A DNA stretch of 62,956 bases, counting the filler, from Stramenopiles sp. TOSAG23-6 (taxonomy: Eukaryota): the NCBI GenBank assembly GCA_900128565.1. It is 6 parts of 6 records of this genome, joined end to end, with 100 filler letters (N's around TTAATTAATTAA, not from the genome) between each part and the next. Parts side by side here need not be neighbours in the genome. Positions count along the whole stretch, not along the records: positions 1 to 12,254 come from LT636209.1; 5 more parts are not named here. One strand, written 5' to 3'. Positions 1-58,994 of this stretch are shown in pieces; position 1 is the stretch's first letter, and each line of letters begins with the position of its first letter. The translations under genes were made by a program, and so were the position numbers. A model generated the notes under the pieces. The model was not told where the DNA came from. It did no database searches and saw only the letters and a list, made by a program, of their open reading frames with translations.

Positions 1-56
1 TTAGGTACAAAATTTCGTACGAAAAATAAATTCGAAATTGAAAAAAATAAAAATAC
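1..56 (-). mobile_element. Introner-like intron, 5' part (truncated by window)
   Basis: AT|GTATTTTT donor plus TTTCGTACGAAATTTTGTACCTAA core. Confidence 0.85.
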
Positions 57-1330
57 ATATCCCTTTTGAGTAAGAATTTTTCCAAGTTGACCTTCTTCGT
101 TGTAGTTATCAATGTCTTCGAATTGACCCACACAAATATGTATCGTGAAAAAATGATGTTAAAAAATTCGTTACAAAAACATTTTACGAAAAAAAAATAA
201 ATTCCGAAATTCAATTTTTAGAACGTACATTATCAACAAAAAGTTGAGGATATTTTGCTCGCTCGCCAATTTCAAAAAGCTCATTACGACGATCCTTTAA
301 CATCGAATCCATTCCATCAACAACTTCGAGTTTACCTGATGCGACTAAAGCCTCTTGGTTACCGCCCATGTAAAACAAAAAAGTTTGTCAAATTTGAAAT
401 TCGTTAGGGTAAATTTTAAAAAAAAGTTTGTCAAATTTGAAATTCGTTAGGGTAAATTTTAAAAAAAAGTTAGGTAAAAATTGTCATGAAAACGTACATA
501 TGTGTTGTAACCCAAGTAGTCACGTCGGATACCTGAGACCAAACTGGTTGTTGTTGCCCTGAAGTGATTAATAGGGTAACTTTATCTGGTGCATCGGTTG
601 AATCTGGAAGCGCATTCTTTGAAATTGATAATTTTTCAACTTCCTTCTCCACTGTTTTTTCAGTCACAACATCGTTACTTTTTGTCGTTGACGCGTTTTG
701 AGCGGTGTATGTTTCACCATGTGATACAGTAGTGACATTGCCACCTACTTCACCGCTGTAACCATTTCGAAAGTCGTATTTTTGCACTTGATGCGCAGCG
801 CCAGCTGACCGTAATTGTTTCTCAAGATCTTTTACAGTGATATCGTTACGACAGTGCGCTTTCAGAGTAAGATGAACACCGTCAAAATACTCTTTTACAC
901 CACTTGTGAAAGAAGATAACTTCGCCTTTACTAAGTTTGGCACATTTTCCCCAGTCCAACAAATAAAACCTAATTTAGTGCGTCTGCTGGTGACACCGCC
1001 ACGTTCATCGATACCAGTAACACGGAAACCAATAAAGGTTATCTCATCATCACTCACTTTAGACAAAAAATCAGGAACACCACCTATACAATGCGGGTAA
1101 TATGCGATGGTAATACAGGTAAATAAACAATAATTTTATCAAAAACAATTCAAGTATGTAATAAATACAAAATATGGTCCCCAACACTTGACTTGTAAAC
1201 GTTGCTTTTTTGGGTTTTTTTTCTTTTTTTTCAGAAAGTTACATATAACCCAACTACAATCTGTATCATCGGCATCAACAATCCGCTTCCATAACGCAGG
1301 AAGCTCCGCAGCAGGTTGGACAAGAGACAT
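57..1330 (-). CDS. Coactosin-like ADF-H domain protein with C-terminal SH3BGR/glutaredoxin-like domain (3' end may run off window)
   Basis: ADF-H motifs (WVIC, FIGFRV, RTKLGFICWTGENV, KAKLSS); after splicing 368-497 and 138-228 reads YPQLFVDNICVGQFEDIDNYNEEGQL. First intron (~1085-1170) boundaries unresolved. Confidence 0.7.
138..228 (-). mobile_element. Introner-like intron GT-AT (degenerate core)
   Basis: AAT|GTACGT...CGATACAT|ATT restores PQLFVDN-ICVG. Confidence 0.8.
368..497 (-). mobile_element. Introner-like intron GT-AT with internal tandem duplication
   Basis: AT|GTACGT...TTACAT|G joins two open frames; ~45 bp internal segment duplicated. Confidence 0.75.
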
Positions 1331-1708
1331 TCTAAGGTTCTACTTCACAAATGGCTACCAAAATCAAGAGTAAAAGAAGACAATCTCAAAAATATGGCCA
1401 TTCGAAAAAAAAAAATGTCAAAATCTGAAGAACAACACGAAAAATGAAAAATTATTTTGTGTGAATTTTGTAACGTTTTCCTCAGAACCTTCAGAAAGTT
1501 GTACTTAAGTATATACTAGTCAAAACTGAGCTTCAACACAACATCTTCTAAACAATCTGTGTTGTAAGGTGTATTTAGAACACTGGAACTCCCTTTTAGT
1601 GCACCTAGGTTGAACTAGTGATTATATTATTATTATTGTACAGAGATTTATAAAAAGTGAGAAATTGGCTGTTTAACTAGTAGAGAAACTCTCAAGATAT
1701 CAAAAAGA

Positions 1709-2590
1709 ATGGCTAATATGCAAAACGGTTTAGATATGGTAGAGGAGCAGGTACCTAAGGAATCACTCATTAAATCGGATATTCACACTCCCAATACAAA
1801 AGTAAATGAGTCTAGAAAGTTACCTTTCAGCGATGATACTCTCATAGACTCTTTGTGGGGTTTTACTACAGAAATTTTATCAGCGGCTCGGCAAGATTTG
1901 ACTAGTATAGGTGCAAAAGCTACACAAGATTTATCTGACTTTGGAAATATTCTCATTGCTGATACAAATGAAATTGCAAAGACAACAGCAACTTCATTGA
2001 GTGAACTCGCAAATATGTTACTCCAAGTAGATGATCTTTGTCATGAAAATGTTGACGAAGGAAAAGAAATGACTGATTTTTCAGAAAAAAGAAAACTTTT
2101 ACAGAAATCCTTCAAAAAAGTGTGTCCAAATGATTCACTATTCACAGAAAATAAATACGAGAAGAATAATTCTTCGACGCCAGTTGATTCTATAACAAAA
2201 CAGGCTATAGTGTCTCCAAATGTTAAAGAATGGGGAAAACATAAACAAAATAAATCTTGCTCTTTTCTAGGTCTCAAAACTGAAGGAGAGAGCGTTGTTG
2301 GAAATGCCGGTGGACTGAATGATATTCTTAGTCTCGCATTACAAGGACAACAATTTATTGATTATACTCTCAAAAGTGATGAAAATGGAGAAACTAAATC
2401 AGAGAAAAAAATAAAGAAAAGGAGTAAACCGCAAATATCTGAAAAACAAAAAAAAGCAGTACACCAAAACAATAAAGCATCATCTTCTGAAAATGATAGC
2501 TGGTGTGAAGTAGATTCTGAAGAAGATTCTTCGGGCATGAGCAGCTGGGGCGAAGTTAGTGATATCCCAGAGAAGGTACCTGTAGAATAA
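1709..2590 (+). CDS. Hypothetical protein (293 aa, acidic/Ser-rich C-terminus)
   Basis: Uninterrupted ATG-initiated ORF; no family recognised. Confidence 0.65.
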   Translation: MANMQNGLDMVEEQVPKESLIKSDIHTPNTKVNESRKLPFSDDTLIDSLWGFTTEILSAARQDLTSIGAKATQDLSDFGNILIADTNEIAKTTATSLSELANMLLQVDDLCHENVDEGKEMTDFSEKRKLLQKSFKKVCPNDSLFTENKYEKNNSSTPVDSITKQAIVSPNVKEWGKHKQNKSCSFLGLKTEGESVVGNAGGLNDILSLALQGQQFIDYTLKSDENGETKSEKKIKKRSKPQISEKQKKAVHQNNKASSSENDSWCEVDSEEDSSGMSSWGEVSDIPEKVPVE

Positions 2591-2700
2591 ATATTTACAA
2601 AAACACACAACTTTGTTGTAAGATTCAATAATAAACAAAATTTTATGGTGACTTTCTGAAGGAACTATTCGTCAATTTGTTTGAGTTTGTTCCTTTAAAT

Positions 2701-3084
2701 TTACTTCATTGGACCCTCTAATATTTCTTTACTAAACTCTACCTTTTCTTTCTTACGCCCACCAAATGTGATAGCACCTGTTTTCCCTTCGCGGATGGGT
2801 GTTTCCTCAATAAGAGCAGCTGCTGCCACACGTTCCTTTTCTTCTAATTTTTCTAACTCTACGCTTTTTATTGGGACAATCCGAGGTTTGCACAGCACTT
2901 CACTGAGATTCCCTTTTTCAGAATAAACTAAGCCTGCTTTAGGCAAAACATGTAATGTAAATGTATAAATAGAAACTTCAGTTGAGAATACAGTTTTCTG
3001 TAGGAAAAGATAATGCCTTGAGTACAATACCATCTACTATAAAAAGTTCATAAACTTACCAATTACTTCAGAGAGCTCTTCCAT
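2701..3084 (-). CDS. BBIP1: BBSome-interacting protein 1 (BBIP10)
   Basis: VLPKAGLVYSE...VLCKPRIVPIKSVELEKLE resembles BBIP1; short first exon MEELSE at 3067-3084 inferred. Confidence 0.8.
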
Positions 3085-3586
3085 AATTCTTAAAAACCCA
3101 AAGTTTGAAATATAATAATGATTAAAAAAAAATAATCAAATAAAATTTCAATGAAATACAACTTAATTATGGTGGGGTCGACACTTGAGCAAACACAATC
3201 TGCAATAACAAAGAGAGACAAAAGACGATTTTCTACGTTGTAATAAATAGGAAGGACTAAAATGACATTGTGGATATTGTGGATGATTGTTTACTTTAGT
3301 GATACCCGGTACCACTCTTTGAATCTTGAGATTTGCTACCTTTCAGCGTCAAAGAACAAATTTTAATTTTTTTTATCGAAAATTTTTGACATTTGAGCAA
3401 CAAATTTGCTACCTTTCTGTTCGCGTCAGGCAGAGCGGAGCGGGGTTTTTTTGTTTGGTGCGAACACCATTATTTAATTAGTAGGGCAGATACATTACGG
3501 CAGATAATATATTACAACAAGGCAATTCTCTAAAAACAAAACCTAAAAACAAAGTTTATCCCTGTGAAAGTTCGAATTGGCTCTGG

Positions 3587-5976
3587 ATGCCAGGAGCCAA
3601 GAGGTCCTCAAAAAGGACTAAACCTGGGCCAGAGCCAACTGCTTGTCGCTGGTGTCATTTAACTACATGCAAGCATTGTCAGTGTCCAAGTTACCGAAAA
3701 TGCACACATGCTCCAGGTGAACCATGTGCAAAAGAGCGTTATGGGCGACGCCGAGTTTGCAACACATGTGAACGTCGCAAGCTCCTTCACTCGCAGAACG
3801 GGAAAAGCAAGCGTAAGCGCTCGAACACGAACTCCCAACGAGGCTTAAAAAATCGTTCTAGAAAATATAGTAAAACCGCGAACAATATTGGATCAAATTT
3901 CAATAGTGATGGCCGTCACCGCCTAAATCGCAATATCGGCAATGAACACTTATTGAATAAGTATCATCCAGGTTTGAATTCTTCTTCTGGAATAGTTCAA
4001 TTAAGAGGGAGTAATTCACTTGCCCCGGTGATGGATGGGCTACCTGGTGGAGATTCTATGTTGGGAACACGAGGTAATATGAATGGTATTAATTCTCTAA
4101 CTGAAGTCATAACAAACCGAGGGAACGTTCTTAAACCAATGAAAAGTGTACCAACATTGGTACCGGGTGTGGGTTCTAAAGCTATGATGAGATCTATCAC
4201 AGAAGCTGATGCATTACTACGCCAAAATGGTACAAACTGTTTTCCTAGTACAGAGGGTATTTTACCTCAGCCAACTTTGGGTCGTATGAGCTCTTTTGAG
4301 GGTATTTTATCTCAACCATCTTTAGGTCGTGCGAGTTCTTTAGAAGGATTTTTATCAAGAGAAAATTCCTTTATATCGAGTGGGTGTGGATCTACTTCAA
4401 AACCTCGAGGAACCCCTGGAACGGGAGAGGTGTTGATGATGCGACAAAATTCACTACTGCCTAGTGGAACAAGTGCGTTATCTGGTACAGAAGCTATCAC
4501 AGCAGCAAGGACAAGTTTTACACGAGGTGGTTCTTTGAGTGGAGGTTTAATTGGTGGAGGGGATGTTACAAATCCATCTATGTTTGCTTCTCCTACTTCT
4601 CTACCTAGAAGAAGTTCATGTACGTTGTCATCATCAATTTCAATTTTTTTTTCACAAAAAAAATTCATACTTAACATATTTTTTCTTACATTATTTTTCA
4701 CAATACATTATGTGGTTTAGCACCGATGCTAGCATCAACTTCGAGTATTAATTCCATAAACAGTGTTATTTTTGATAATGTAAATAATGTAAATGGACCA
4801 GACGAAAACTTACAGCGTAGTAAAAGCTTGAGGTTTGAGGATTCTTGTGCGAAGGATATTGGAAATGTCTCAGATCTTTGGCATTTTTTTAAAGGAAATA
4901 GCACCCCATCAAGTCTAGGAATGCAAATGATATCTACAGGTGATTTGAATACTGGCTCTATATCGACGTACAGCGCATCTAGTCCTTCGTCCACTGAAAA
5001 AATGTATGTTTTATTTTTTTTCAAATTCGATTTTTTGTTTCGTACGAAATTTTGTACCTAACGATTTTAATGTTTGAAATATTTTTTCATAATCCATGAA
5101 TCCAAATCAAAATGTTGTGAAATTCGGTCAGAGTACATCATTTGATTCCTCTTTTTCCCGAAAGATGCTTTCCCCAATCATTTCTCGAAAAGATGATGAT
5201 TTATCGCAGGATACGCTTCGCCGTAGTCAACTCGATCGACAGTTATCTTTAGATCAGCAGTGCAAAAAAATTACATTTGAAAAATCCGTCACAACAAGTG
5301 TAGACAAACCTGCTTCTAAAGATCAAACGGTTGCTTCTATTGAACAATCGATGTCACCTGTGTCATCCGAAGGTGAGTGGAGAGAAGCGACAGATCCAAA
5401 GTCAGGTCGATTGTATTATTGGAATGTACATTTTCATCATACAAATTCATTTTTTTTTACTATGAAAATTTCGTACCTAACGAATAAAAAAAATAACCCT
5501 AATTTTTCACAATATATGTTCTAACACGTGACGTCACGTGGGACAATCCGGTAAAAAAATATACTACAGAAAGAACAGTGACAAACACGAAATTTTATGA
5601 GAAAGACGAGAAAAATTCAAGTTTTTTGTCGTTTGCTACAAATGAAAATTTCGAAGATAAAAAAAGCAAAACATATTTTGATACTTCACGGAATTTTTTT
5701 GAATCCCAGGAAATTCGAGATAATCCTAACCCTAATGAAAAAAATGGTTCAATAAAGAATAATGATAAATTTAAATGTAAGTTTAACCCAACTGCTTTAA
5801 AAGATGTAACATACCAAAAGAATGGCGTGGAAAATGGTAATGTCAACCCTAATAATGCTACATTAAAAAAACAAATTAGGAAACAAAATTTGAAAATGGA
5901 ACCAGAAAATGCCAAAAATAATGTGTGTCAAGACTTACTTGAGATTGAGAAAGAGAACACCGTTGTCGTTGTTTGA
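3587..5976 (+). CDS. Protein with Cys/His-rich N-terminus, low-complexity middle and a WW domain; 4 exons
   Basis: Four ORFs join in frame on removing 4620-4708, 5004-5097, 5426-5517; WW motif WREATDPKSGRLYYWN|VLTRDVTWDNP is rebuilt across the third intron. Confidence 0.8.
4620..4708 (+). mobile_element. Introner-like intron GT-AT
   Basis: AT|GTACGT...CAATACAT; phase 1 join is in frame. Confidence 0.8.
5004..5097 (+). mobile_element. Introner-like intron GT-AT
   Basis: AT|GTATGT, full core, ...AATCCAT; phase 2 join is in frame. Confidence 0.85.
5426..5517 (+). mobile_element. Introner-like intron GT-AT
   Basis: Removal restores WW-domain spacing. Confidence 0.9.
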
Positions 5977-6425
5977 AAAACAAATGTTTTTATTTTCAAA
6001 ACTCAAAAATGTTTAATTAATTTAAATTACGGTGTTTAAAAAAAAAAAAAATAACACATGTAAGTAATATAAAACAAAATGAAACAAATTAAAAAGAAGA
6101 AAAAAAGAGTGGAATAGCGTGAGATGTAGAATAATAAATTTAAAAAAAAAACTTCCTACAAAAAAAAAATAATATAATAGAGCACATATATTTATAACAG
6201 TTGTAATTTCTTGAGGCTCTAATAGATATTGAATTTGGTATGTAATAGTATAATAAAAAGTAACTTTGAAAAAGCACGTAACTGTTTTTTTCATTTTTTT
6301 TTCAGCCGTTATGATTATTTGACATTTTCCAAAAATGACGTCGTGTAGTCGTCATTCATTCTGCTTGGTACTAGTAGCAAAAAGATTCCCAAAACGCCAT
6401 TTTAAAATTTCAAAAAACAAAGACA

Positions 6426-8374
6426 ATGTCAGATTTGAAAGAAAATGGAACAGAAGAGGAAATGAAATTACTTGCACCCCCTCTACCACCAGAAAAGGCA
6501 ACCCTCACATGTCGATGTCCACAGGCTGGTAGTAGTCGGTTCACAAAAGACGCATCTGGGAATATATTACGTGGTGTAGACAAAAACGGCAATCCAATCG
6601 TGTACCTTGATATTTATACACCACAAGGTCTGCTGCCTGTACCAATTCCTCACGATGTTACACCAGGTGAGAAATTTGAAGTTGATTATATAGTTCGAAT
6701 GCCTTCTTCTCAAGCAAAAATGAATAGAGAAGGCACCGAGGAAAAGAGTGAAGCATCTTTGCCAGTTGCAATTGCAGAGTACACAAGACCTATGATATCT
6801 TCACCGCCAGTTCCGAAAGACGCCCAATGTAACATCTGTGGTAAGGGACCAAACGAACGGGCGGATATGATCCGTCCTTGTAATTGCGCAGGATATGTTC
6901 ACCGGAAATGTCTTGATAATTGGCGTGCTACACAACCAAATGCTTTTACTAAATGCCAGCTTTGTAATTTTAAGTATATTTTTGAGCAAGTAACTCAGAA
7001 AGAAGAAGACGAAAAGACTAAGAAATGCAAGCAGCATAAATTTCGAGCCCTTGTTGCTAGAGATGTCATCTTTGTCTTTTTGGGTATACAGCTTATTATT
7101 GTTGGTCTTGCAGTACTAATTTGGCTCCTGGATGGAAAACAACATTTTGGAGATGCTTATGAAAGAGAAAAGTTTCCTGACAAGTACCAATGTGATGAAG
7201 GTTCTTTAATCAAATTCTTTGGATGTCCGCGATATTTTGGCAAATCATTTTATTATGCTTGTGGTCTTATTGTATTCCTATTTACCGTAGGATTTACTGC
7301 GATGACAAGCTATTTCTGTTGCAGTGGAGAAAACGCCTGCGGTGAGTGTTGTTCTCAATCAGGTTGTTCAGGTTGTTATTGGGATAGTTGGGATTGCTTT
7401 TATTTATGGTATTGTTGCAGTGGAAATGGAGGTGGGAATTCATATTATAGTGGGAGTAGTTCAGGCTGTCAATTATGTTGTGAGTCATGTCAATGCGCTG
7501 ATGCTTCCTGTAGTAACGCTGGTAACTGTAACTGCGGTGATTGTGACGGTGGTGGTGGAGGTGATGCCGCAGCTTTCATTCTAATGTTTTTTCTTGTAGT
7601 AGCTGTCATAGTCGTTGCTATTTTTGTGGTGATTGGGGTATGGATTGTTCTATTTGCTATAGTATCTGCAATACAACGGATACTTCAAAAACATATGCAT
7701 GTACTGCAAAAAAGAGAGTTATGTAAAAAATGGGTTGTTGAAGACCAAGCCGGGCGATTAGCCCTTGATAAGGTTGAAACAGAATACATTTCAACTGCAA
7801 ACCCAGTCAGTGTTAACGATAATTTGAGTGGCGTACAAGTTCCTGCTGGTACTCTTTGTGTTGGTGACTTTGTTGCCGCACGATATCCAGGGTTTGATGG
7901 AAACGCCGAAAATCCATGGTTTCAAGCTGAAGTTACGGCGATTTTAACGAGTGGCATAGAATTGAAATATGCTGACGGTGATGTTAGTCAAATAGTAAAT
8001 GAAAAGTTCAGTGATGTCAAGTTCGCACCTATGGCTCCAGCAACTTTGGGTAAAGGTAGTCATGTATGTTTTATTTTTTTTCAAATTCGATTTTTTTTTT
8101 CATACTAAATTTTGTACCTAAGCTAACGAGTTTTTTTTTGAAATATTTTTCCAAAATACATCGATCAAATGATTTAGCCACGGCACGAAGTAGTTATGGA
8201 ATGGATTCCTTTTCTGTTTACGATATTCCTTTGTCCAAGTCTGATCGCAACCTTGGACTCGACGCAGCTGCTAAAGAGGTAAAAGATGTGCGTGCTAGAG
8301 ACTCGTACTTCAATGAGAATGTAGTTATTTCAGTTGAGGATGATTTAAGGAAGTCAGGAATTACTGATTGGTAA
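6426..8374 (+). CDS. RING-CH (MARCH-like) membrane E3 ligase with Cys-rich loop and Tudor/Agenet-like segment
   Basis: CNIC...PCNCAGYVHRKCLDNWR...CQLC; several hydrophobic helices; last exon joined via 8064-8161. Confidence 0.8.
8064..8161 (+). mobile_element. Introner-like intron GT-AT
   Basis: CAT|GTATGT...AAAATACAT; phase 0. Confidence 0.85.
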
Positions 8375-8463
8375 TTTCAAAAATAATTCAAAAAGATTTA
8401 TAACAATTAAATTTTATGAACTTGTTATAAAAGTAGTATTCTCACATCTGTTACTAAAATTTC

Positions 8464-9877
8464 TTACAATATATTATCAACTTTATCTAAACACATTGCT
8501 AATAACGCCATTCGCAGTGATAGGCCACACCCTGCCTGTCGAAAATATGCTGCTCTATGTATTGTAGAAAAATATTTCAAAAAAAAATCGTTAGGTACAA
8601 AATATCGTATGAAAAAAAAATCGAATTTGAAAAAAAGTAAAACATACATGGTCATCATCAACAGCTACATCAATTTCATCCACTCTTGGCAGAGGGTGCA
8701 GAACGATCATATTGGAAGCAGCAAGCTTCATGTCTTCTGTATTTAATACATATAAACCTTTGCAGTTTTCATACTCCTCCAGACAGGAAAATCATGTATT
8801 GTGAAGAAATATTTTTTTCGTAAAAAAAAATCGTTAGATAGGGAATTTTTTTAATTTTAATTTTTTTTTTTTAGTAATTTTTGTATAAAAATGAAATTCA
8901 TCCTGAAAACGTACGTTCCCTTTGAATACGCGTCATATAGAAAACATCAGTTGAACCAATAATATCCCGATAATCTTCACTTTCTGACACTTGAACTCCG
9001 GCGTTTTTTAGTTCTTGAATGTATTTCTTTGGCATCCTTAAAATGTCAGATGTATTGTGAAAAATATTTTTTTTGTAAAATTTGTTAGGTACAAAATTTC
9101 GTATGAAAAAAAATTTAGACAAAAAATTGAAAAAAAATAAAACATACGTGCAACAAAATTGATTTTGACACCATCAAACCGAGAAAGCAAACGTGACAAA
9201 GAATGCACAGTGCGACCATTTTTCAAATCTCCCACCATTGTTACCGTTATATTATCAGGTGATTCAATGCCAAGCTCCTGGATTATTGTAAAAATGTCCA
9301 ACAAACTTTGTGTTGGGTGTTCACCAGCTCCATCTCCTGCGTTAATAACAGGGTTGTTCGCTAAGAGGGAAGCTGAGGCAACGCTACCTACTAGAGGGTG
9401 TCGCATTGCAATGATATTTGTATACTCCTCCATTATGCGAATAGTGTCCGAATATGACTCACCCTTTTGCGTAGAAGATGCTGTTGAATCTAGTTGAAGA
9501 ACTTGACCCCCAAGACGCATCATTGCAGCAGCAAAACTACTAGATGTCCGAGTTGAAGGTTCAAAGAAGAGGTTTCCAAGAATACAACCTTTGCAATAAT
9601 CAACTTGACTTTGAGTTTGTCTTACTTCATGCATATGCGCAGCGACTTTCATTACAGTTTCGATACTCTGGCGATCAAATTGATTGGAAGAAAGCACATG
9701 CGATTTTTTTAGAGGGTTCACCGAGTCACTCAACGGCACTCGCATGCTTGTCATTCTTTTTAGTTTTTGAAGTCGTGTATCGCGATCATCTGAAGGCAAA
9801 CTTATGGAAGAGAAAGCCTTGGATAACCCTGCATTCTGTGTGGGTAACCAACGATGAAATACTCGAATGGAACGCAT
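8464..9877 (-). CDS. pyrB: Aspartate carbamoyltransferase, monofunctional, with N-terminal presequence; 4 exons
   Basis: FFEPSTRT, MRHP, NAGDGAGEHPTQ, VGDLKNGRTVHSL, YMTRIQRERF, HPLPRVDEI, RAAYFRQA. Confidence 0.95.
8557..8647 (-). mobile_element. Introner-like intron GT-AT
   Basis: Restores VDDDH|RAAYFRQA. Confidence 0.92.
8794..8914 (-). mobile_element. Introner-like intron GT-AT
   Basis: C|GTACGT...AATACAT|GA gives the conserved Arg of QRERF. Confidence 0.92.
9050..9147 (-). mobile_element. Introner-like intron GT-AT
   Basis: C|GTATGT...AATACAT|CT gives the conserved Pro of FVAPDILRMP. Confidence 0.92.
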
Positions 9878-10162
9878 GTTGCTAAGAAGATTTCCTAATG
9901 TTAATCTTGTTGTTGAATAGGATAATTGTACGTACCCTGTGTACCCTGCAGTCAAATTTGAATTCTTTGAATTGTGTCTACAAACCACGCGTTTGAAATA
10001 TTCGTACCATTTTGGTACGGTTTTAAAATTATTGTGATGTTATATAATAATCACGTGATCATCAGATTCTACGTATACAGGAGGCAACTTGAACCTCTCC
10101 TCCTCATTCGTTCTCAAAAGAAAACACTATTGATCAAAAGAAAACATTATTTAAACAATCTA

Positions 10163-12202
10163 ATGATGCTCCGGACTTTGTTTAAGAATACGAAGCAGCA
10201 TTTCACAAAGAGGTCTTTAAATACCCTCAACTCAACGGCTGCAAAATGTACACCTCAAGCCAACGCAGAACTTGTTGAAGTTGAAGCAAAGGAAACTCAG
10301 TCAGCTAAACTCTGGGGTGGACGATTTGAGAAAGATACCGATGCTTCAGTTGTTTCCTGGGCAGAGTCGTTAACGTGTGATGAGGAAATGATTGTAGAAG
10401 ATTTATGGGGATCAATCGCACATGTTTCGATGCTAGGTCGACAAGGTGTCATTCCAGCGGATGAAGCAGCTCAAATTTTGACCACTCTTGTTGGTTTTCA
10501 AGACTCTGCCATGAGTGGGGAAATGGATTTTTTTGACAAAAAATTTTCCAACCATGATGACGTTCATATGAATATGGAAGCCCGTCTTATTGATGCTACG
10601 TCGATGGAAGTTGGAGGTAAAATGCATACGACACGTTCTCGCAATGATCAAGTACCTGTGAGTTCTCAGCTGCACACACGAAACCGGCTACTAGAATTGA
10701 GAGAAAACCTCGGAAAATCAATAACTGCTTTTCTTGATCGAGCCCGTGAGCCTGGTTCACTTGAAGCCGTCATGCCTGGATATACACACTACCAGCATGC
10801 ACAACCTATCTCAATTGCGTTTTGGATGTCACATTATGCCGCTGTGCTTGTGAGGGATCTGGAAAGACTTAAGGCTGCCTACGATGTCGTAGATGAAAAT
10901 CCTTTGGGTATTTTATATTCANTACAATTAATACTACTGTTTTTTTATTAGGTACAAAATTGCGTACAAAAAAAACTACATGAGCTCTTTTACAATGAGA
11001 CAACTATTTGAATATTACTTCTAATATATTTATATTACATAATTAACATATGACACACATTATAGGCTCAGGCGCAATAAGTGGTACGTCATTTCCTATA
11101 GACAGATTATGTATGTTTTATTATTTTTTTTACAAAAAAATCGAATTTATTTTTTGTACGAAATTTTGTACCTAACAATTTTTTTTAGATTTTTTTTCAA
11201 AATATTTTTCCAAAATACATTAACAACTGAACTTTTAGGCTTTCAAAATGTTCGCGCACACTCGCTTGATGCCACAGGTAACAGAGATTGGATGTGCCAA
11301 GTTCTCGCAGCTAATGCGACATTGCATAGCACATGGAGTCGTTTTGCTGGTGAGCTTATTACATGTATGTTTTCTTTTTAATTTCAATTTGTTTTTTCGT
11401 ACGAAATTTCGTACCTAACAATTCTTTTTGTGATTTCGTGTTTTTTCACAATACACGGAGTAGTTATGAGTATCGAACCGTTACTCTTGATGATGGTTTT
11501 GCGATGGGTTCGTCAATGATGCCTCAGAAGAAAAATCCAGGCCCATGTGAATTACTCCGAGGTCGTGCAGGTATCATGAATGGGTATCTAACTGCAGGAA
11601 TGACAATGGTACATGTATGTTTTATTTTTTTGAATTTCGAATTTAATTTTTTTTTCGTACGAAATTTTGTACCTAACGAATTTTTTACGAAAAAAAAAAT
11701 ATTTTTTTTACAATACATGGGCTTCCGTCTGGGTATAATCGCGACTTTCATGAAGAAAAAGAATTGCTATTTGCATCATGCTCAATGTACGTTTTCAAAA
11801 ATTGTTTTTCCTTTAGTACGAAATTTCGTACCTAACGCTTTTTTTTAGTGTTTGTTGGATGTTTTCAAAAATTGAAGTTTTACCTAATTTTTTTTTTTTG
11901 AACTAAAATGAAAATTCAATACCTAACAAAAACGTTTTTTTTATGTTTTATTTTTTTGAATTTCGAATTTATTTTTTTTTCGTACCACATTTTGTACCTA
12001 ACGATTTTTTTACTTACGAAAAATATGTTTCCCAATATATGGCGAATCGTGCAACTGAAGTTATTCCGTCGCTGGTAGCATCAACGACATTCAATACCGA
12101 TAGAATGAAGGAATTATGTGATAAAAACTTCATGACAGCGACAGAATTGGCTAATTATTTGGTATCAGATCATGATGTTCCTTTTCGAGCGACACATCAT
12201 AT
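10163..12202 (+). CDS. ASL: Argininosuccinate lyase (3' truncated at contig end)
   Basis: [83 protein letters not shown] across 6 exons. Confidence 0.95.
10908..11065 (+). other. Canonical GT-AG intron
   Basis: G|GTATTT...TATAG|GC restores NPLG-SGA. Confidence 0.9.
11111..11220 (+). mobile_element. Introner-like intron GT-AT
   Basis: Restores [12 protein letters not shown]. Confidence 0.92.
11365..11456 (+). mobile_element. Introner-like intron GT-AC
   Basis: T|GTATGT...AATACAC|GG gives the conserved Trp of ELITWSS. Confidence 0.9.
11615..11718 (+). mobile_element. Introner-like intron GT-AT
   Basis: Restores [12 protein letters not shown]. Confidence 0.92.
11787..12040 (+). mobile_element. 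Compound introner-like intron GT-AT (several partial copies)
   Basis: 254 nt, four TACCTAA motifs; phase 2 join is in frame. Confidence 0.85.
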
Positions 12203-12254
12203 GTATGTTTTATTTTTTTTTTTACAAAAAAATCGAATTTATTTTTCGTACGAA
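12203..12254 (+). mobile_element. Introner-like intron, 5' part (contig end)
   Basis: AT|GTATGTTTT...TTTCGTACGAA. Confidence 0.85.
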
Positions 12255-12354
12255 NNNNNNNNNNNNNNNNNNNNNNNNNNNNNNNNNNNNNNNNNNNNTT
12301 AATTAATTAANNNNNNNNNNNNNNNNNNNNNNNNNNNNNNNNNNNNNNNNNNNN
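12255..12354. other. Artificial contig linker
   Basis: N-run + TTAATTAATTAA + N-run, 100 nt. Confidence 0.97.
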
Positions 12355-30065: not shown

Positions 30066-32451
30066 ATGAATTGCAGACACGTTAAAACTGGAGTAATGTT
30101 GTTTTTGTTGTATTCAACACAACTTATCAATTGCGCAAAAATGGTAGTGTTTATGTTACCAGGAGAACAGCCAGGCTCAACTTTTGATGAGAAAAACCCG
30201 TTCGAAACGAATCCACGTCTTGAAAATAAACAGTGGGATTGGATTAAAGCTGTAAATGACTGGCATTATGCGATGCTCAACGACGACTCTCGAAATCATG
30301 CTTTCAATAACGCACTCAAGGAGGTTGTACGTCCAGGATCAATTGTTCTTGATGTTGGCACAGGTTCTGGGCTTCTTGCAATGATGGCAGCGCGTGCTGG
30401 CGGGCCTACGTGCGCTGTAGTAGGTATAGAAGGAAATAGCGACATGGCTGAGATAGCCAAGCTTGTTGTTCAGGATAACCAACTACAGGATCAAATTACT
30501 GTTTTAAATAAGAGATCTAACAAATTTTCCGTTGAAGAATTTCATTCCACCGTTGAAAATATTTTCGAGAGACAATCTCTAAATGTTGAATTACCTACAA
30601 GTCCAAGTAAAAATAATGAGAAAGATTTAGCTGACGTCATAGTTGCTGAGTTATTTGGTTCTGCACTATTAGGTGAAGGAGCATTATATTTCATTCGCGA
30701 TGTTAGGAAACGGTTGTTAAAACCTGGTGGGACGATCATTCCAGCAGCTGGCGCACAAAATTTACGATTAGTAAACTCAAAATCTTTAGGAAAAATTACG
30801 AGTGTTGACAATTGGGATGGATTTGACTTGAGCCGTATGTACGTGTTTACCATGATTTTCTAATTTATATTTTTGTACCCATTTCAAAGGTAACTTATTA
30901 CCTAATGAATTTCCAATTTGATATATTTCCCTAAAATATATGAATATAGCACGAGATACTGACACATTATTTACAAAGCGATTGGGTGTACCACGTACGT
31001 TTTCAAAATTGAATTTTAACCTAACTTTTTTTTTTATAGAAAATCTTGTACCTAACGATTTTTTTTCTCCAAAAAAAAATATATATTTTTTTACAATACA
31101 GATTATATGCTTGGACTAGAATCGCTCGCCGTTGATATTCCAATATATGACATAGACTTTCATACTTGTAACCCCGAAGATATTCCAGATTCTACAATAT
31201 ATTTTCGAATTAGGGTTTTGAAAGCAGGAATAATCCATGCTGTGTCTAATCATTTTACCCTTTTTCTTGATCGAAATAGAAAGATTACAATAAGTTCTGA
31301 TGTACGTTTTCATTTTTTTTTGCCTAATTTTGTTTCGTACGAAATTTTGTACCTAATAACAAAAATCTTGTAATATTTTTTCACAATACATGCACCTGAG
31401 ATACCAAGATGGGTTCATTGGGGGCCAAGAATGCAGTTGATTGAAGACTGGGACTTTTCTGAGGATGGATCTGGTGTAGAAGAAAAACGTTCACATAATT
31501 TACCTAAGTTGTTTCATGTTGAAAAGGGTGAATTTATTGAAGTTATAGTAAATTTCGCTGGGCATCACGGTCAGTACGGAGCTATGCAAATACGACTAAA
31601 TAGAGTTGATCCACCATTGCCTAATTTATATAGTGTACTTCATAGTAATCTTGGTATAGTTAATACAAATGAAACATATGAGAATGACATTCATGCCTTA
31701 CAAAAATTATGTAATACAGATATAATTATTGAAGTTTCTGTTACAAATGCAAAACAAATAACTTTGTATGTTTTATATGAATTTCTAATTTAATTTTTTT
31801 TCATACGAAATGTAGTACCTAACGATTTTTTTTTTGAAATATTTTTTCACAATACTTGTTTCAAACGAGAGGACCGAAGTGGCAAATCAAAAAAGACGCG
31901 GACACGTTTTGCAGAAACAACTTTTTACTTGGAAAGGGTGTTTCGTGTATCAAGACTTTAACAAAAACTGCAGAAAATATCCGTGCAAACTATGTACGTT
32001 TTCAAATTTAAATTCGACTATATTGTTTTTGTACTTAATTTTATACCTAACGAATTTCATTTTTTTTGAAATATTTTTTCTCAATGCATGATGATTCTGA
32101 GGACATATGCAAAATGGGAAAAGTAAATTTCAGTAATAAAGAAGACTGTGGTAATTACATATCATCTCAGTGTGGTTGGCTACATTTTCACGAAATTGAA
32201 GGCATTTTATCGAGCGACGACAAAAATAAAGAAAAACGTATTGTTAAAGATAGTATATATAAAAGGCGGGGAAGTACTAGCAATGATGTATGTTTTATTT
32301 TTTTTCAAATTCGATTTCTTTTTTCGTACGAAATTTTGTACCTAACGATTTTTTTTTGAAATATTTTTCCAAAATACATACCATTTCAGAACGTCCTGAA
32401 TTACAGGATATGGGTGGAATTGAGTTAGAGGGACCCATGGCAAGTTGGTAA
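30066..32451 (+). CDS. Protein arginine methyltransferase-like (PRMT7/9-type SAM domain) with hydrophobic N-terminus; 7 exons
   Basis: WHYAMLNDDSRN, VLDVGTGSGLLAMMAARAG, ADVIVAELFG, LLKPGGTIIP, RWVHWG; six element introns give one open frame. Confidence 0.82.
30839..30941 (+). mobile_element. Introner-like intron GT-AT (degenerate)
   Basis: AT|GTACGT...AAATATAT|G gives FDLSRMN. Confidence 0.78.
30995..31101 (+). mobile_element. Introner-like intron GT-AG
   Basis: Same body, ends CAATACAG; phase 1 in frame. Confidence 0.88.
31302..31391 (+). mobile_element. Introner-like intron GT-AT
   Basis: GAT|GTACGT...CAATACAT|GCA. Confidence 0.88.
31766..31857 (+). mobile_element. Introner-like intron GT-TT
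   Basis: TT|GTATGT...CAATACTT|G; next exon open in that phase. Confidence 0.75.
31994..32089 (+). mobile_element. Introner-like intron GT-AT
   Basis: TAT|GTACGT...CAATGCAT|GAT. Confidence 0.8.
32288..32379 (+). mobile_element. Introner-like intron GT-AT (near-consensus copy)
   Basis: GAT|GTATGT...AAAATACAT|ACC. Confidence 0.88.
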
Positions 32452-40140: not shown

Positions 40141-42966
40141 ATGGTTAAACACAAAACTAATCTCGAGAATCCATGGGATGGTGAGGACTGGCAATCTGTT
40201 GATGTCACTATGGAAACAGCCATGTCTTGGAGTGAAGGGGGATTTCTCGGTCTTGAAGTTTTAGATGGCAGCACTGTTGAAGTAAAGAAGGGTAAAGGTG
40301 GAGTATGCACGATCAAATCCCGTAGGCCAAAGAAAACAAGTAAGCGTAAGCGTAAGAACACAAGCAAATCAATGTCTTTTGATTTGTCTTCAAAAAGTAC
40401 GACAATTCCGAAAGACTATGCAACAGGAAAGCCATCGTTGTCAAAAGATGTAGAAGAATCTCCTTTGATAACTCGTCCTTCAACTATCGACAGTAAGGAG
40501 GAATTACGCTCTATAGATGCCCAGATAGCTTTTCTCGAAGCGAAAAAAATTGATGCTCAGATCAAAGCGTTACAGGCAAAGAAATATTCGCTCACTAAAA
40601 GGATAACAGTGACAACTAATTCAGCAAATTCTGAGTCTGAGCCTAATCCTAACACTCAGAAAGAAAAGTGTAATAATGTAAATAGTACAACAGTATCAAG
40701 TGAAAAGAAGAAGAAGAAACGCAAACGTGACCGAAGTAAAGAACGAGCAGCACGGAAACGCCGCAAGGCATCTGGAATTACAGTAGCTGAAGAGCGAAAA
40801 TTATTGAAAAAGAATTTATCTGGTACTGTTCAGAAAAATACGAGAAACAATTCGTTAGGTACGGAATTTCGTACGAAAAATCATTGTGACATGAGTGCGT
40901 GGGAATCTCTTAATCTTCACTCAGATCTTATAGCTAATTTGCAAAAATTAGGTTTCGATACCCCAACTCCGATACAACTTAAATGTATTGCTGCTGCTGT
41001 AACGACAGGCAAAGATGTTCTTGGTGCTGCTGAAACAGGATCCGGTAAAACTCTTGCGTTTTCATTACCGATTCTTGTACGTTTTAATCTTGAATTTCGA
41101 ATTTCAATTTTTTTTTCATACGAAATTTCGTACCTAACAAATATTTTTTCTTAAAATTGTTTTTTCACAATACATCATCGTTTATTAGAAGAACGTGACA
41201 TTTTTGAAGCAAAACGAGCACGAGATACTATGGATGGTATTGTAGAACAAGAACAACAATCTGAAGATACACGTCTTCGATGTTTGATCATTTGCCCTAC
41301 TAGAGAACTTGCACTTCAGGTAACCCGTCATATTATAAAAGTATCATGTGATACTGGTATTAATGTTATGGCTCTTGTAGGTGGTATGGCACAAGTGAAA
41401 CAGGATCGATTACTTGCGAAACGTCCTGAGATTATTGTTGGAACTCCTGGACGTTTATGGCAATTAATGAGAGATGGTCAAGAGCATTTAAATGATCTTT
41501 CAGCAGTTAATTTTCTAGCAATAGACGAAGCGGATCGAATGGCATCTCCTGGAAGTTATCCAGAATTAAAAATGATTTTTGAAAAATTGAAAAAATCAGA
41601 TGAATTAGTTGAATCAGGATCAATGTTTAGTAGAAAGGCGCAAATGTTTAATGATCTCGCTGATTTTGATGACGATGTAGTGAATTTGTCTGAGGATGAT
41701 GAAGATGACATTGTATCTAGTGATGTGAATGATGATGTAAATGAAGAAGAAAATCGTACAAATTCATTACCAATGAATGCTGTTTCTCCAAATACTCAAA
41801 AACAAAAGAAACAATTAAAGAAACAAGGTCGAAGATATAGTAGAGTACATCGCCAAGTACTTCTCTTTTCAGCAACTTTAACAATTGGTCAAGAAGGACG
41901 TGAACAACGAAAAAGTAACAAAAACAATAATCAAAATGTACAAAACTCTGGTAGTATTGATAAGAATATTTATTCTTTAGCTCTTCTTTGTGGTTGTGGC
42001 AAATTTTCTACACCTGCAATCATTGATGTTACTACGGCATCTACAAAAACACCATCCAAGACTGAAATAATTCAATATGGGAAAAAAAAATCTCAATTTT
42101 CACTTCCTGATGGTCTTGAACTTTGTCAAATATTTTGTTCGGATGATGAGAAAGATGCATATCTTTATTATTTTTTTTCAGAATATGCTGGGAGGACACT
42201 TATTTTTGTGAATGCTATATCACATGTAAAACGATTAACTGTTTTATTACAACTTTTGAAACTTCCTGCGTACTCTTTACATGCAAAAATGCAGCAACGT
42301 GCGCGCCTTAAAAATCTTGATCGATTTCGTGCAGAAAAAAATACTATCTTAGTTGCGACTGACGTTGCTGCTCGTGGATTAGATATTCCTTTAGTGGAAC
42401 ATGTTGTTAATTATCATTTGCCACGATCTACTGAATTATTCGTTCATCGTAGTGGACGTACAGCTAGAGCAAATACAGAAGGAATTAGTATTTCGCTTGT
42501 GGCAGCACAGGAACAATCTCTATATAGAACAACATGTAATGTTTTAGGAATGCCTCAAGGTCTTGCTGCGTTCCCTGTAGATTTGTCTTCTATGAAACAA
42601 TTACACACTCGTTGTAATATAGCCAAAAAATTAGCAATTTTACAAGTAAAACTTTCTAAAAAAAAAAGTAAAAATAATTGGTTAATTCAAGCTGCAAGGG
42701 ACGCTGATATTGTTATGGATGAAAATCTTCGACACGAAATGTCTAATAATGGTTCTGATGAAAAACGTCAAAAAGTTTTAGTTGCTCAATTAGCAGCGGA
42801 AATGAATAGACCTTTACTTGGTCGAGTCAGAGGAGGGATGTTGAAGGTTAAGGTAGCACATGCCGAAGCAAGTACAAAAAAGAAAAGATCTCAGGAAAAA
42901 GCGAAACTAACACGAAAAGCAGCAAGCGATCTCCGATATTCCGGTTCAATGAATGGATTTAACTGA
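40141..42966 (+). CDS. DDX24: DEAD-box RNA helicase DDX24/MAK5; 2 exons
   Basis: [61 protein letters not shown]. Confidence 0.92.
41077..41175 (+). mobile_element. Introner-like intron GT-AT
   Basis: CTT|GTACGT...AATACAT|CAT restores LPIL-HRLL. Confidence 0.92.
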
Positions 42967-43118: not shown

Positions 43119-45565
43119 TTAATCCTTGTACATATTCTCCTTTCTCGCAATCTTCGCTTTTGACTCGGTAGTTCTACGTAGATGTCTCGTAAAAGATGTA
43201 CTTGCACCATTTGAATAAAGGTCCTTAGCAAGATCCGAAAGATCATTCATTGAACTTTCGAAATCGAGTCCATTAATCGTGTTTCTAATTGCTCGCCCGT
43301 TCAATCCGGCAGCTTTTTCACCTTCAGGCGTATCCGGATATACAAAACACATAGCCCCGGGTAATCCAGGGGGGGCAAAGCAAGAAAATATCCCATATCT
43401 CGCCTTATAATCAAAATAGGTGAAGTCACCCAATACTTCAGGAAGCACATGAATGATCACTGCATCACCAAGCACTGCACACGATTCCTGCTTTATCTTT
43501 GTTAGCGTTCGTTTTTCAGTGAGAAGACAAGCAGCACGAGCATTTGGTTTACTATCGGTTCTGGAAAATTCTCTCTTTACAAAAACAATTTTTATTTCAC
43601 CCTCCAATCCTGAATTTTCTCGTCTTGACGTTTCAATAGCTAGCTTATCAACAGATACATCAAATACTGTATTCGCAATGTTTGCTATACAGCCATTGAC
43701 ATTTGTACTCGACGACACAAACGTTGCATAAGGCATTTTAGATGAATCACCAGGAAACACAACAATAGAAATTAAATTACCTCGATGTTCACTTCGTCGC
43801 TTTGTTTTACAAACCTGTTTGTGGGAATAATTGTGCATTGTTGACTTACCTTTCCAGTCTAGTTTTTGACCTATGTTGATTGTTATAAAGAATGAAATAT
43901 TAGTTAGTACACAACTTGTGAATATCATAGATGAAATCTTGGATTCTGTCAAATAATGCTCCAATGTAACGTACACGTTTTCCCACAATATTTCACGGAT
44001 TCACATCTTCCGCAGCTAAAAAATGTATTTTTTAAAGATTCTTTTGTTCCACAATTTGCACATATATTTACAGGCATAGGCAATTGAATAATCCGACCAG
44101 TATTAGCAGCATCTTGACCTTCTTCGTCCTCTGACTCATTATATGCACCTGCCGCATTTTGTCTCTCACGAAATTTTGCACGCATTTCAGGTTGTTTTTC
44201 CAATACTTTCGACTGCATTGTCACTCCTTTATCCTCCTCTTGCTGTTCCATTATAATTGTTCTACCACATATTTGATCCTCTGAATACGACTGGGTTACC
44301 CAAAAGGTCGCAAAAATCGAGCCTTGATCAGCAAATTCTTGAAGTTTCTCTTTCGTTGAGAGATCCCACATCTTTTCATCATACAGAAATCCCTCCGCTT
44401 TACTAGCATGTTTCATTCTCCCATAGCCATATCGCAATTTTTCCCAACCTTTCAGAACCTTTTCTAACTCTAACCTTAATGCAGACTTGTCTTCTACAAG
44501 CCTAATCAAACGTTTCAATTCCTTGCGAATAGTTTTAAACCGTAAGATAGAGCTCCAAAACTGTTGCGGGTCTACCGCTGCAAATATAGTTGGTTCAAGG
44601 CGGTTCGTGTCACCAATAGCCACAGCGGTTCTTAAGTACATTAAAGCCTCCTCAGGACCATAATCAAGAAATCTCTCTTGACGTGCAACAGATTTTTTTG
44701 TCTTGTCAGCAGAAAGGTGCATATATCGCACCTCTAAAGAGTCGTCACGCTCAGGATGTGGACAGGGGTATATTAAGTAAGAGCCGTTAGTCACGGCACC
44801 CATGCGCTCTGCGGAAAGGTCTTCCTTAGCATCGCGAATGCGATGAGGTGTAAACTTACCATAGATAGAGCCTTTTGCTTTTTTTCGTCTTGCAATTGAT
44901 TTACGTAGAAGTGCATCATCATCGGCAATTTTACAAAAATTAGCCAAGATTGATTCATCGAGAAGCGGAAAATCATCATTGCACTGGAGTTTATTACAAT
45001 ATCTTGCAACATTTAAATCGGTAAAGTCTAGAACAACTTGTTTCGAGAGAGGTGAAGTATGAACTAAGCCTGAAATTGCCATTTTCAAGTTACCACGAAA
45101 CCGACAGCAATCCCCAGAAAGATACTGCCGATCAGTTTCTTGCCCAAGGATGCAAATAGCATTGAAGTTTTTCGTTCGCAGATTTTTACGGCCTACACCA
45201 ACACCACATGGTGTGCACTCTAATATATCGAAATTCGCAGGTTGCAGTGATTTTTTTCCTTTTTGACCGTCTAGATGACATGCAAATCGTCCATTAGTCT
45301 GCTTGTTAATAATTTCACCTACACTGCCATTACATTTACGACCGGTCTCACTCTTTAACCCATGCACACAAATCAATGAACGAGGTTTTGGTCCCATCCC
45401 TTGACTTACAAGAAACTGGCGGTATTCCTCAGGAGTGAAAAATGATTTCAAAGCATCCCAGCCTTTCGGACTTTTTGTGCACTCACCTAGAAGCCTTTTG
45501 AATTCTGCTTTTCGGCCTTCCTGCATCATACTCAATAATTTCTCGAATTCTGCATCATTTCCCAT
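43119..45565 (-). CDS. MYND zinc-finger protein; 2 exons
   Basis: CANC..CGRC..YCGKT|CQKLDW..HKQVC completed by intron 43871-43974. Confidence 0.85.
43871..43974 (-). other. Canonical GT-AG intron with TACTAAC branch site
   Basis: GTACGT donor, TACTAAC at 43903-43909, CATAG acceptor. Confidence 0.92.
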
Positions 45566-57514: not shown

Positions 57515-58994
57515 ATGAGTACAAATGGAGTTGTTCTTAAAGTGAAAGAAGCCACATTTTTTGCGATATGTATTGTAGGTTTCATCATTCGGAATCTAGT
57601 AGCACGGCAAACAAAAAAACAAAAAATTTCATGTATTGCTACATGGCGATTTGGAAGTATAGCTGTTGAAGCGGCTGCAAAGAAGCTTTGTGATGGGGGT
57701 TCTGCTTTAGATGCGGTTGAAATTGGCACACGTGCTGTGGAGTTATTATCTTTAGAAGAAAATGCTCAACAACTTTGTGTTGGTTGGCGTGGAAATCCAA
57801 GGTCGGATGGTAGAATGTATTATGATAGTGCAATCATGTGTGGGAAAACACATAGATATGGTGCTGTGATGTCAATGCCAAAGTGTAGTACTCCTGTTCA
57901 AGTTGCGCGAAGTGTTTTGCAAAATTCTCCACATAATGTTTTTGTTGGTGAAGGAGCCTTGAGATTTGCACAAGAATGTAGTGCTAACACTCTTACAATC
58001 ACCGATAAGCTGCATCCAAAAAGTCGTATAGAGTATAACCAGTGGAAAAAAAAACTCCAAAAGGGCAAAACTAGCAAGAATGTTCCACTTGGTCAGGGTG
58101 CACATTCTAATCAGAAGAAAGCATCGTCATTTCAACATGATACCGTTGGTGTGATTTGTTTAGATAGAAATGGAGATCTTGCTGTCGCTACTTCGACTTC
58201 AGGCTGGGCGTTTGTACGTGAAGTTCACGTTTTTCATCATGAATTTTAAATTTGTTTTTTTTTTTGGTACGAAATTTTGTACCTAAATATATATACTTTT
58301 TTTTTACATAAATATTTTTCACAATTTTTGCACCTCCTGGACGAGTTGGTGATGCTCCTCTGATAGGTGCTGGTTTATATGTAGATAATGATGTTGGTGC
58401 TGCTGTAACAACTGGAGATGGTGAAGAAATTATGAAACATTGTACGTCTTTCTTTCAGTATGATTTTTTTCCAATTGGATTTTTTTTGTACCAAAATTTG
58501 TACCTAACAAAAAAAATCAAATTTTTGAAATATTGTCTGACAATACATGTCTGTCGTTTCTTGTTGTTGAATTAATGCGGGGAAATAAAGAAACAAATTC
58601 TATATCACCTCAAGAAGCTTGTCAACTTGGATTGTTTCGAATGTTGCAAAAAGTTTCTCCTGAAATAAGAAAAAAATGTACAGTTGGTGTAATTGCAATG
58701 AATACGAGAGGTCTTTCAGGTGCCGCGAGTACAATATCTTCTACAAATCCGCATTTCCAAGAAGCTGCTAATGTACGTTTTATTTTTTTTTCAAATTTAT
58801 ATTTTTTTTTTTATAAAAATTTTGTACCTAACGATTTCAAATGTTTGAAATATTTTTTTACAAAACAGAAAGATCCTTTTTCTTTTGAATGGGCAAAATA
58901 TACTAAAATTATTAGTAAAGATGAAAATCCATTGTATGAAAAAGCAGATCTTATTTTTGAAAATGTACTAAACCCTGTTTTATTTAACCCATAA
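57515..58994 (+). CDS. Glycosylasparaginase / type-2 asparaginase (Ntn hydrolase); 4 exons
   Basis: [48 protein letters not shown]. Confidence 0.9.
58214..58329 (+). mobile_element. Introner-like intron GT-TT
   Basis: TTT|GTACGT...CAATTTTT|GCA restores [13 protein letters not shown] spacing. Confidence 0.8.
58442..58548 (+). mobile_element. Introner-like intron GT-AT
   Basis: Restores [15 protein letters not shown]. Confidence 0.88.
58773..58868 (+). mobile_element. Introner-like intron GT-AG, 96 nt, in frame
   Basis: AAT|GTACGT...AAAACAG|AAA. Confidence 0.8.

Follow-up and report, generated by a model that had tools for sequence, protein, structure and literature searches.

Where does an intron begin and end when the same two bases flank it on both sides, and what removes it when its last bases are not AG? 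Both questions are raised by a 62,956-nt stretch of the genome of Stramenopiles sp. TOSAG23-6 (GenBank assembly GCA_900128565.1), referred to here as the window, in which copies of one repeated element interrupt many genes. The window is eukaryotic, A+T-rich (GC of 0.29 to 0.41 across its length), and dense in housekeeping genes, including those for aspartate carbamoyltransferase (ATCase), argininosuccinate lyase (ASL), a DEAD-box helicase, a HECT ligase, Sin3, DHHC, and others. Our reading, to which we give a probability of about 0.75, is that the element is a transposon-derived introner, similar to a miniature inverted-repeat transposable element (MITE), and that it is spliced by a U2-type spliceosome tolerating a 3' end other than AG, an end that probably arose from a 2-bp target duplication.

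Homology places the boundaries of the element introns at GT...AT or GT...AC

Thirty copies of the element are complete. In 21 of them, AT stands both before the intron and at its end (AT/AT, upstream flank/last two bases), in one the pair is TT/TT, and in eight the two differ. An earlier note on this DNA, which named four sites at coordinates that proved exact, had stated that most copies sit between AT repeats and that alternative registers then give the same mRNA; the count of 21 bears this out. It had also stated that the boundaries are GT...AT or GT...AC, and not AT-AC or TG-CA. We translated each register, designated by its shift (-1, -2, or +1) relative to the GT start, and compared the junction codon with homologues. 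For ATCase, these were P0002 to P0120, with the window's own public coding sequence, P0001, excluded.

At ATCase intron A (Table 1), the GT register gives the codon CCT, for Pro (FVAPD). Registers -1 and -2 give Ser (FVASD), and +1 gives Arg. Pro is present at this position in all 119 homologues, as anticipated by the claim that only the GT register would provide it. Because none of the neighboring registers yields the same mRNA, intron A alone fixes GT...AT uniquely. At intron B, the GT register reads GAA CGA TTT (E-R-F), and registers -1 and -2 run into a stop (GAA TGA). Arg is found in 114 of the 114 homologues that align here (of 119). The claim that only the GT register gives CGA was right against -1 and -2 but too broad, because a G follows the intron and the +1 register (TA..TG) produces the same mRNA. 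Removal of intron C gives DDDH/RAAYFRQAG (the slash marks the junction), which matches relatives P0002 to P0006. The whole GT-register model aligns with P0003 in one gap-free block of 336 aa at 67% identity.

The ASL gene, read without its five introns (one GT-AG and four from the element), aligns free of gaps with P0121 to P0124 and P0129 at 71 to 80% identity over 395 to 417 aa. At its third intron, the GT...AC register yields Trp (ELITWSS), and -1 and -2 yield Arg (ELITRSS). The homologues have Trp (111), Tyr (5), or Phe (4) at this position, and none of the 120 has Arg. A perfect AT...AC intron is on offer at this junction, yet it would put Arg where an aromatic residue belongs. Trp had been attributed to the GT...AC register exclusively, which is correct with respect to -1 and -2 and incorrect with respect to +1, an equivalent register. 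In the DEAD-box helicase intron, the AT-AC register turns LPIL into LPIH, as predicted. However, LPIL results from the GT and the TG register alike, and the TG-CA register is still allowed by that copy alone. The junction residue is L or I in two of three printed PDB alignments (LPLL and VPII), and the third ends one residue short.

Alignment of the candidate translations with homologues, which the earlier note had proposed as a check, thus chose the GT register in ATCase and ASL, with L or I at the helicase junction in the two alignments that reach it. At the unequal-flank copies open to homology, the GT register restores a family-invariant residue, and the AT-AC and TG-CA registers are contradicted. 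Judged from the alignments, the choice of one register by three independent sites is far beyond chance. On this comparative basis, the boundaries are shown to be GT...AT or GT...AC. Three other unequal-flank copies (24716-24831, 28590-28753, and 58442-58548) are undiscriminating; their registers differ in nonconserved residues only. A metagenome scan for ATCase relatives returned a single distant locus, L001 (37% identity), which was uninformative for the junctions, and a search for transcript-derived short peptides across ATCase exon 2 produced zero candidates.

These junctions bear directly on whether the introns could instead run from the AT before GTAYGT to ...ATAC, as minor-spliceosome-like or U2 AT-AC introns. 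Such introns form the classic non-GT-AG class, and in the 21 AT/AT copies they would leave the same mRNA as the GT register. Even so, we consider them very improbable. They would put a stop codon into ATCase at junction B, replace the invariant Pro at junction A with Ser, replace the W, Y, or F of all 120 ASL homologues with Arg, and place His for Leu in helicase motif I.

The other conventional possibility is that these are ordinary GT-AG introns that use nearby AGs. A GT...AG alternative keeps the frame open for several copies, and the public ATCase model appears to have been built in this way. That model, P0001, is the only 100%-identical protein in a large protein collection, and the name of its source (eukprot GSMAST32...) suggests a marine stramenopile of the MAST-3 type. 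It has 304 aa, compared with 367 aa in the GT-register model, and its alignment to that model is gapped at residue 243, at junction A, and at residue 278, at junction B. P0001 reads NFVARMMPKKY where relatives have NFVAP[ED][VI]L[AR]MP..Y, and it is without VFYMTRIQRERFSCLE and FVAPDILRMP, which all relatives have. At junction C, it has DDDHVSAYF rather than the DDDHRAAYF of the GT-register model. From its sequence, P0001 looks as if it was built allowing only GT-AG introns. Gene prediction for assemblies of this kind is described as transcript guided in the available text of PMC5778133, the accessible main text of which has neither "splice" nor "canonical". The residues missing from P0001 are common to all relatives, the GT...AT model is gap-free, and the one intron end seen in RNA (next section) is ...TACAT, with no AG. 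We therefore give the GT-AG explanation very little credence.

One copy is removed in RNA and retained in DNA

Environmental sequences matching the window came, for DNA, from seawater metagenomes and small runs of one coded organism and, for RNA, from seawater metatranscriptomes. Contigs of four runs (DNA run X1 and RNA runs X7, X8, and X9) were matched to positions 1-12254. The resulting joint table was dominated by cross-matches among element copies (for example, 8587 to 9076), and the joints reported here are among those listed.

A poly(A) metatranscriptome contig (X8 record 16) matches 229-366 and then 497-586 (138 and 90 nt, with 1 differing letter). It skips 130 nt, 367-496, which is equivalent to the element intron at 368-497, and this is the sole clean splice joint among the joints listed. 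The contig shows that one copy is removed at the RNA level. It does not settle the register, and the AT/AT flanks with the following G permit four equivalent placements. A second contig, X9 record 27, matches 8914-9048, followed by 17 unplaced letters that are not visible; its four differences are all internal. A stop that includes C8915 and one further base is the prediction of the GT register. Under the other registers, the match would end at 8916, and in unspliced RNA it would continue. Because other X9 contigs have adapter-like ends, we count this contig only as consistent with the GT register. Reading cDNA across the junctions had been put forward as a check, and it was run weakly, on one clean joint at an AT/AT copy and one consistent contig. 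No RNA contig with visible letters across a register-deciding junction was present among the joints listed (positions 1-12254, three RNA runs). X7 record 8 (420-641) retains part of the 368-497 intron, so it comes either from RNA that was unspliced or from DNA present in the library.

DNA contigs carry the element in place. X1 record 1 retains the 368-497 intron minus one 43-nt internal tandem unit. In the window, this intron has two tandem 43-nt units (one at 377-419), each with the motif ACCCTAAC. Because X1 record 1, a metagenome DNA contig, has a single unit, the difference is a length polymorphism in the wild population. X1 record 7 extends from within the copy at 9118 to the copy at 11135 and spans ASL intron 1; therefore, these elements are present in DNA.

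In being short and A+T-rich, with inverted ends and a duplicated dinucleotide, such elements are like the sequences that ciliates eliminate from DNA, and the window could then be a germline-like copy. The X1 contigs retain the elements in environmental DNA (rather than in single cells), the joined form was seen once and in a poly(A) RNA library, and the elements have strictly sense orientation and conserved splice signals. All of this makes DNA elimination extremely improbable.

Structure and distribution of the element

The element is nearly palindromic, A+T-rich, and ~90 to 120 nt long, and it ends in AATACAT. A 22-nt core, CGTACGAAATTTTGTACCTAAC, occurs with its variants ~40 times in the 63 kb. 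A full copy has the layout GTAYGTTTT...(T-rich, TTTCAAATTCGA)...CGTACGAAATTTYGTACCTAAC...(T-rich, TTTGAAATATTTTT)...CACAATACAT, with inverted termini (GTAT/ATAC), subterminal TTTCAAA/TTTGAAA, and a central palindrome. The complete copies are 72 to 254 nt long, and multiples of three are not favored (7 of 30). All 30 have GT at the 5' end (GTATGT in 14, GTACGT in 12, GTACAT in 3, and GTGACG in 1), and the last two bases are AT in 26, AG in 2, AC in 1, and TT in 1. Across 26 aligned copies, neither the opening GTA nor the TAA of CTAAC varies. The last CTAAC-like motif, in the copies where it was located, lies 31 to 48 nt from the 3' end, a 17-nt spread. Rfam had zero family matches anywhere in the window.

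Copies in unrelated genes have best-partner identities of up to 0.87, an underestimate because flanks were included and gaps were counted as mismatches. Their hosts are genes for ATCase, ASL, and proteins with DEAD-box, DHHC, cofilin, HECT, and Na/H-exchanger domains, among others. Removing the element opens the reading frame over 40 codons on either side (+/-40) in 22 of the 30 cases; in the remaining 8, another intron, a gap, or the end of the gene falls within the span. The intron-forming copies in coding regions are all sense oriented. Two antisense pieces were found, at 10908-10981 in ASL intron 1 and at 40823-40892 in the helicase gene.

In DNA run X1, element bins are ~400 to 1500 times deeper than unique bins (a summed depth and not a copy number). 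All five linkers between records, and a run of 49 Ns at 62344, lie at or inside an element copy. Because high-copy repeats break assemblies, the element is what breaks the assembly at these places.

A proposed U2-type route for removal of the element

We propose that the element has inserted into many genes and is excised from their transcripts as an intron. It brings a 5' splice site (GTAYGT), a branch-point-like ACCTAAC 31 to 48 nt before the end, and a T-rich tract. The last two bases of the intron (usually AT and occasionally AC, TT, or AG) would probably be the downstream copy of a 2-bp target-site duplication, at a target of approximately (C)AT/G. Splicing out the element plus one duplicate would then restore the original coding sequence.

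What points to the major spliceosome is that the element carries the signals of an ordinary host intron (43871-43974). The two share the 5' site, branch motif, spacing, and T-tract and differ only in the final base or two (CAT/ versus YAG/). Reversed copies likewise start with GTAT and end with ATAC plus AT, but they are without the branch motif, and so the sense-only bias fits asymmetric signals. With regard to the target, a G follows the intron in 18 of 30 copies, which gives it the look of AT/G. In 22 of 30 copies, the TT/TT copy among them, the terminal dinucleotide is the same as the upstream flank. All eight aligned copies with a best-partner identity of at least 0.8 (>=0.8) are AT/AT, and the unequal-flank copies are more diverged (median best-partner identity of 0.65 versus 0.755; one-sided Mann-Whitney P = 0.016 for 8 versus 18 values, which are nonindependent). 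From this, we infer U2-type removal with no need for AG and a terminal dinucleotide derived from target duplication.

The minor (U12-type) spliceosome is known to tolerate GT-AT termini, and its 3' ends are flexible. However, the U12-type 5' site, [GA]TATCCTT, occurs in 0 of 30 copies, which have GTAYGTTTT instead. The only conserved branch-like motif is 31 to 48 nt from the 3' end, compared with ~9 to 15 nt for U12-type introns, and the 5' site and branch layout are those of the host's ordinary GT-AG intron. Removal by the minor spliceosome is therefore quite unlikely.

Nonspliceosomal removal, in which the inverted termini would pair to guide the cut as suggested for euglenid and Amoebophrya introns, is in our judgment unlikely as well, although a little less so. 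The element is nearly palindromic, and its last two bases vary (AT, AC, TT, and AG), as if position sets the cut. GUAU/AUAC are paired in four of six minimum-energy folds, and this 4-bp helix is the sole recurrent one. However, an RNAalifold consensus on 26 copies has 0 pairs, and the six single folds have z scores of -2.17 to +0.82. The 5' GTA, the CTAAC motif, and the T-tract are retained even in diverged copies, and the sense-only orientation of the intron-forming copies again fits asymmetric spliceosomal signals.

Several observations weigh against the U2-type introner that we favor. The register of the unequal-flank copies rests on protein conservation at four sites, one of them strictly unique, and on one RNA contig, and the only clean RNA joint is a single AT/AT junction. 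Of seven complete copies not preceded by AT, five nevertheless end in AT, which simple target duplication explains only if mutations followed. Those five copies would require fewer changes if the final AT belonged to the element itself and insertion took place after an AT with no duplication. An AG 2 nt downstream of ATCase intron C (8557-8647) and another 5 nt upstream of the end of the copy at 25350-25421 must be ignored, and an ordinary AG-scanning spliceosome would not pass over such nearby AGs. Finally, element bins (for example, 7772-8180, 8999-9407, and 11044-11861) are hundreds of times deeper than exons, both in the DNA run and in each of the three RNA libraries. This excess could reflect stable excised introns, unspliced RNA or poor splicing, or DNA carryover.

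The copy at 25350-25421 is diverged, with a duplicated TTTGCACCTAAC motif and its AG in the context CGCAGTACAT. Only the ...ACAT end keeps a long downstream frame, and the AG seems to be skipped. It is possible that the 3' cut is set by the ...AATAC motif or by short pairing of the GUAU/AUAC ends. Extended to the genome, the proposal would be that an abundant uncultured marine stramenopile has thousands of U2-type introns with AG-free 3' choice, cut two bases past ...AATAC whatever those bases are and with nearby AGs ignored. We put this forward tentatively, with slightly more doubt than belief.

Features of the window

The coordinates of the features are in Table 1. Some copies of the element have other fates. 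In ASL intron 1, the terminal GTAT of the antisense fragment is the 5' splice site, and the AG used is 84 nt past the fragment. The 70-nt antisense copy at 40823-40892 lies inside the open N-terminal frame of the plus-strand DEAD-box helicase gene and is read through; either it has turned coding, or the true helicase start is the ATG just after it. The depth of the element in RNA sums many copies and perhaps also related organisms.

Table 1. Positions of the genes, introns, and element copies discussed, counted along the window (slash in a sequence, exon-intron boundary)
Feature	Position	Strand	Details
Element intron, cofilin/ADF-domain gene	368..497	-	AT/AT; GTACGT...TTTTACAT; sole copy seen removed in RNA
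ATCase gene	8464..9877	-	Exons 9877-9148, 9049-8915, 8793-8648, 8556-8464; 367 aa
ATCase element intron C	8557..8647	-	AT/AT flanks; AG 2 nt downstream, unused
ATCase element intron B	8794..8914	-	Flank AC, termini GT...AT; ...GGGAAC/GTACGT...AATACAT/GATTTT
ATCase element intron A	9050..9147	-	Flank AC, termini GT...AT; ...GTTGCAC/GTATGT...AATACAT/CTGAC
ASL gene, first six exons	10163..12202	+	Followed at 12203 by another element copy, in which the contig breaks
ASL intron 1, ordinary GT...AG	10908..11065	+	Begins with 74 nt of the element in antisense (10908-10981)
ASL element intron 2	11111..11220	+	AT/AT
ASL element intron 3	11365..11456	+	Flank AT, termini GT...AC; ...ATTACAT/GTATGT...AATACAC/GGAGT
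ASL element intron 4	11615..11718	+	AT/AT
ASL element intron 5	11787..12040	+	AT/AT; composite of two or three element copies
Degenerate element copy	30839-30941		Read by eye
Element copy ending AG	30995..31101	+	Flank AC
Element copy ending TT	31766..31857	+	TT upstream; main hint (covarying flanks) of a 2-bp target-site duplication
DEAD-box helicase element intron	41077..41175	+	Motif I region; flank TT, termini GT...AT
Ordinary non-element intron	43871..43974	-	Host splice signals; GTACGT...TACTAAC...(33 nt)...TAG
Degenerate element copy	58214-58329		TT before, TT at end; read by eye
Element copy ending AG	58773..58868	+	Flank AT
Linkers (44 N, TTAATTAATTAA, 44 N)	12255-12354, 24589-24688, 36901-37000, 49196-49295, 61451-61550		Each at or inside an element copy
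49-N run	62344-62392		At or inside an element copy

Scattered single Ns at 33995-34016 mark the overlap, in different frames, of two long minus-strand open reading frames (32545-34071 and 33992-35500, an AAA ATPase gene), which is probably a frameshift of sequencing quality and not an intron. At 47387-47560, a run of ~9-nt units (GTGTATTTT and GTATATTTT) lies opposite a minus-strand open reading frame with a CEP44 domain, and it recurred in a scan for 5' splice sites.

Discussion

Among routes of rapid intron gain, introners have the best support, and the families catalogued so far have GT-AG termini. Similar copies in unrelated genes and their precise removal are both found for the element in the window, whereas the canonical GT/GC-AG termini of introners are not, with AG at the end of 2 of 30 copies. 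Frame-restoring removal was seen in RNA for one copy and is indicated for three ATCase and four ASL copies by gap-free homologue alignments. Because so few copies end in AG, compared with the canonical sites of catalogued families, we regard the element, canonical at its 5' end but not ending in AG, as a variant among introners, a known family type.

If our reading is correct, spreading as an intron does not oblige a transposon to create an AG, and a major-type spliceosome is permissive enough to allow this in a free-living protist. The 3' cut rule would be accessible to ordinary RNA sequencing and lariat mapping. If the more tentative genome-wide proposal also holds, second-step or U2AF-type recognition of the 3' site would have changed, evolving together with a transposon as it proliferated, and this would parallel, independently and in a protist, the tunicate Fritillaria. 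Most public gene models of the lineage would then be wrong at element junctions. Pipelines restricted to GT-AG mis-build genes here, as in the public ATCase model, which loses conserved segments at two junctions. Therefore, the lineage's proteomes that serve in phylogenomics and in the mapping of metatranscriptomes contain small deletions of a systematic kind. The GT...AT family would also be overlooked by intron surveys based on annotated introns.

We found no published description of a GT...AT introner family in this lineage in the main texts of the nonsubscription literature. The available main text of two large introner surveys (PMC9860276 and PMC12130899) contains neither "MAST" nor "stramenopile", and that of MAST genome papers (PMC12614181 and PMC8163842) contains neither "intron" nor "non-canonical". 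As far as its accessible text states, the later survey kept families with unfamiliar splice sites only when transcript alignments confirmed them (PMC12130899).

The comparisons that follow draw on the available parts of the papers cited. U12-type GT-AT introns, such as those of Physarum (10.1101/2020.10.12.336362), have the same terminal pair, but the element is without the U12-type 5' motif and differs in branch spacing. Euglenid nonconventional introns (PMC11282704 and PMC4770533) are probably MITE derived, like the element, and have duplicated-looking junction sequence and non-AG ends. However, they have no pyrimidine tract or consensus borders and need stable end pairing, whereas the element has GT, a T-tract, and a branch motif. 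The introner elements of Amoebophrya (PMC7789003), also a marine protist, are repeated introns too; they carry inverted repeats, and short direct repeats overlap their exon-intron boundaries. They have no preferred terminal dinucleotides and rely on hairpins of 8 to 20 nt; the element has GT in 30 of 30 and AT in 26 of 30 copies, weak predicted structure, and strong spliceosomal motifs.

The DNA-transposon introners of Micromonas and Aureococcus (PMC11282704 and PMC9860276) resemble the element in being short and nonautonomous, with inverted termini and many similar intron copies in unrelated genes. In these families, the element supplies one splice site and the other end lies in the duplicated target (PMC11282704), as we propose for the element in the window. 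However, they are canonical GT-AG introns with duplications of 3 to 9 bp, whereas the dinucleotide that is probably duplicated around our element is usually AT, and the intron ends in AT. Fritillaria borealis (PMC13326754 and PMC11282704) also has transposon-derived introns with non-AG 3' ends (AC and AT), there throughout the genome. A modified major spliceosome processes these introns, and divergent U2AF paralogues have been reported (PMC13326754 and PMC11282704). The introns of this animal mostly start with AG (AG-AC and AG-AT), whereas the stramenopile element keeps a GTAYGT 5' end and is unusual only at its 3' end.

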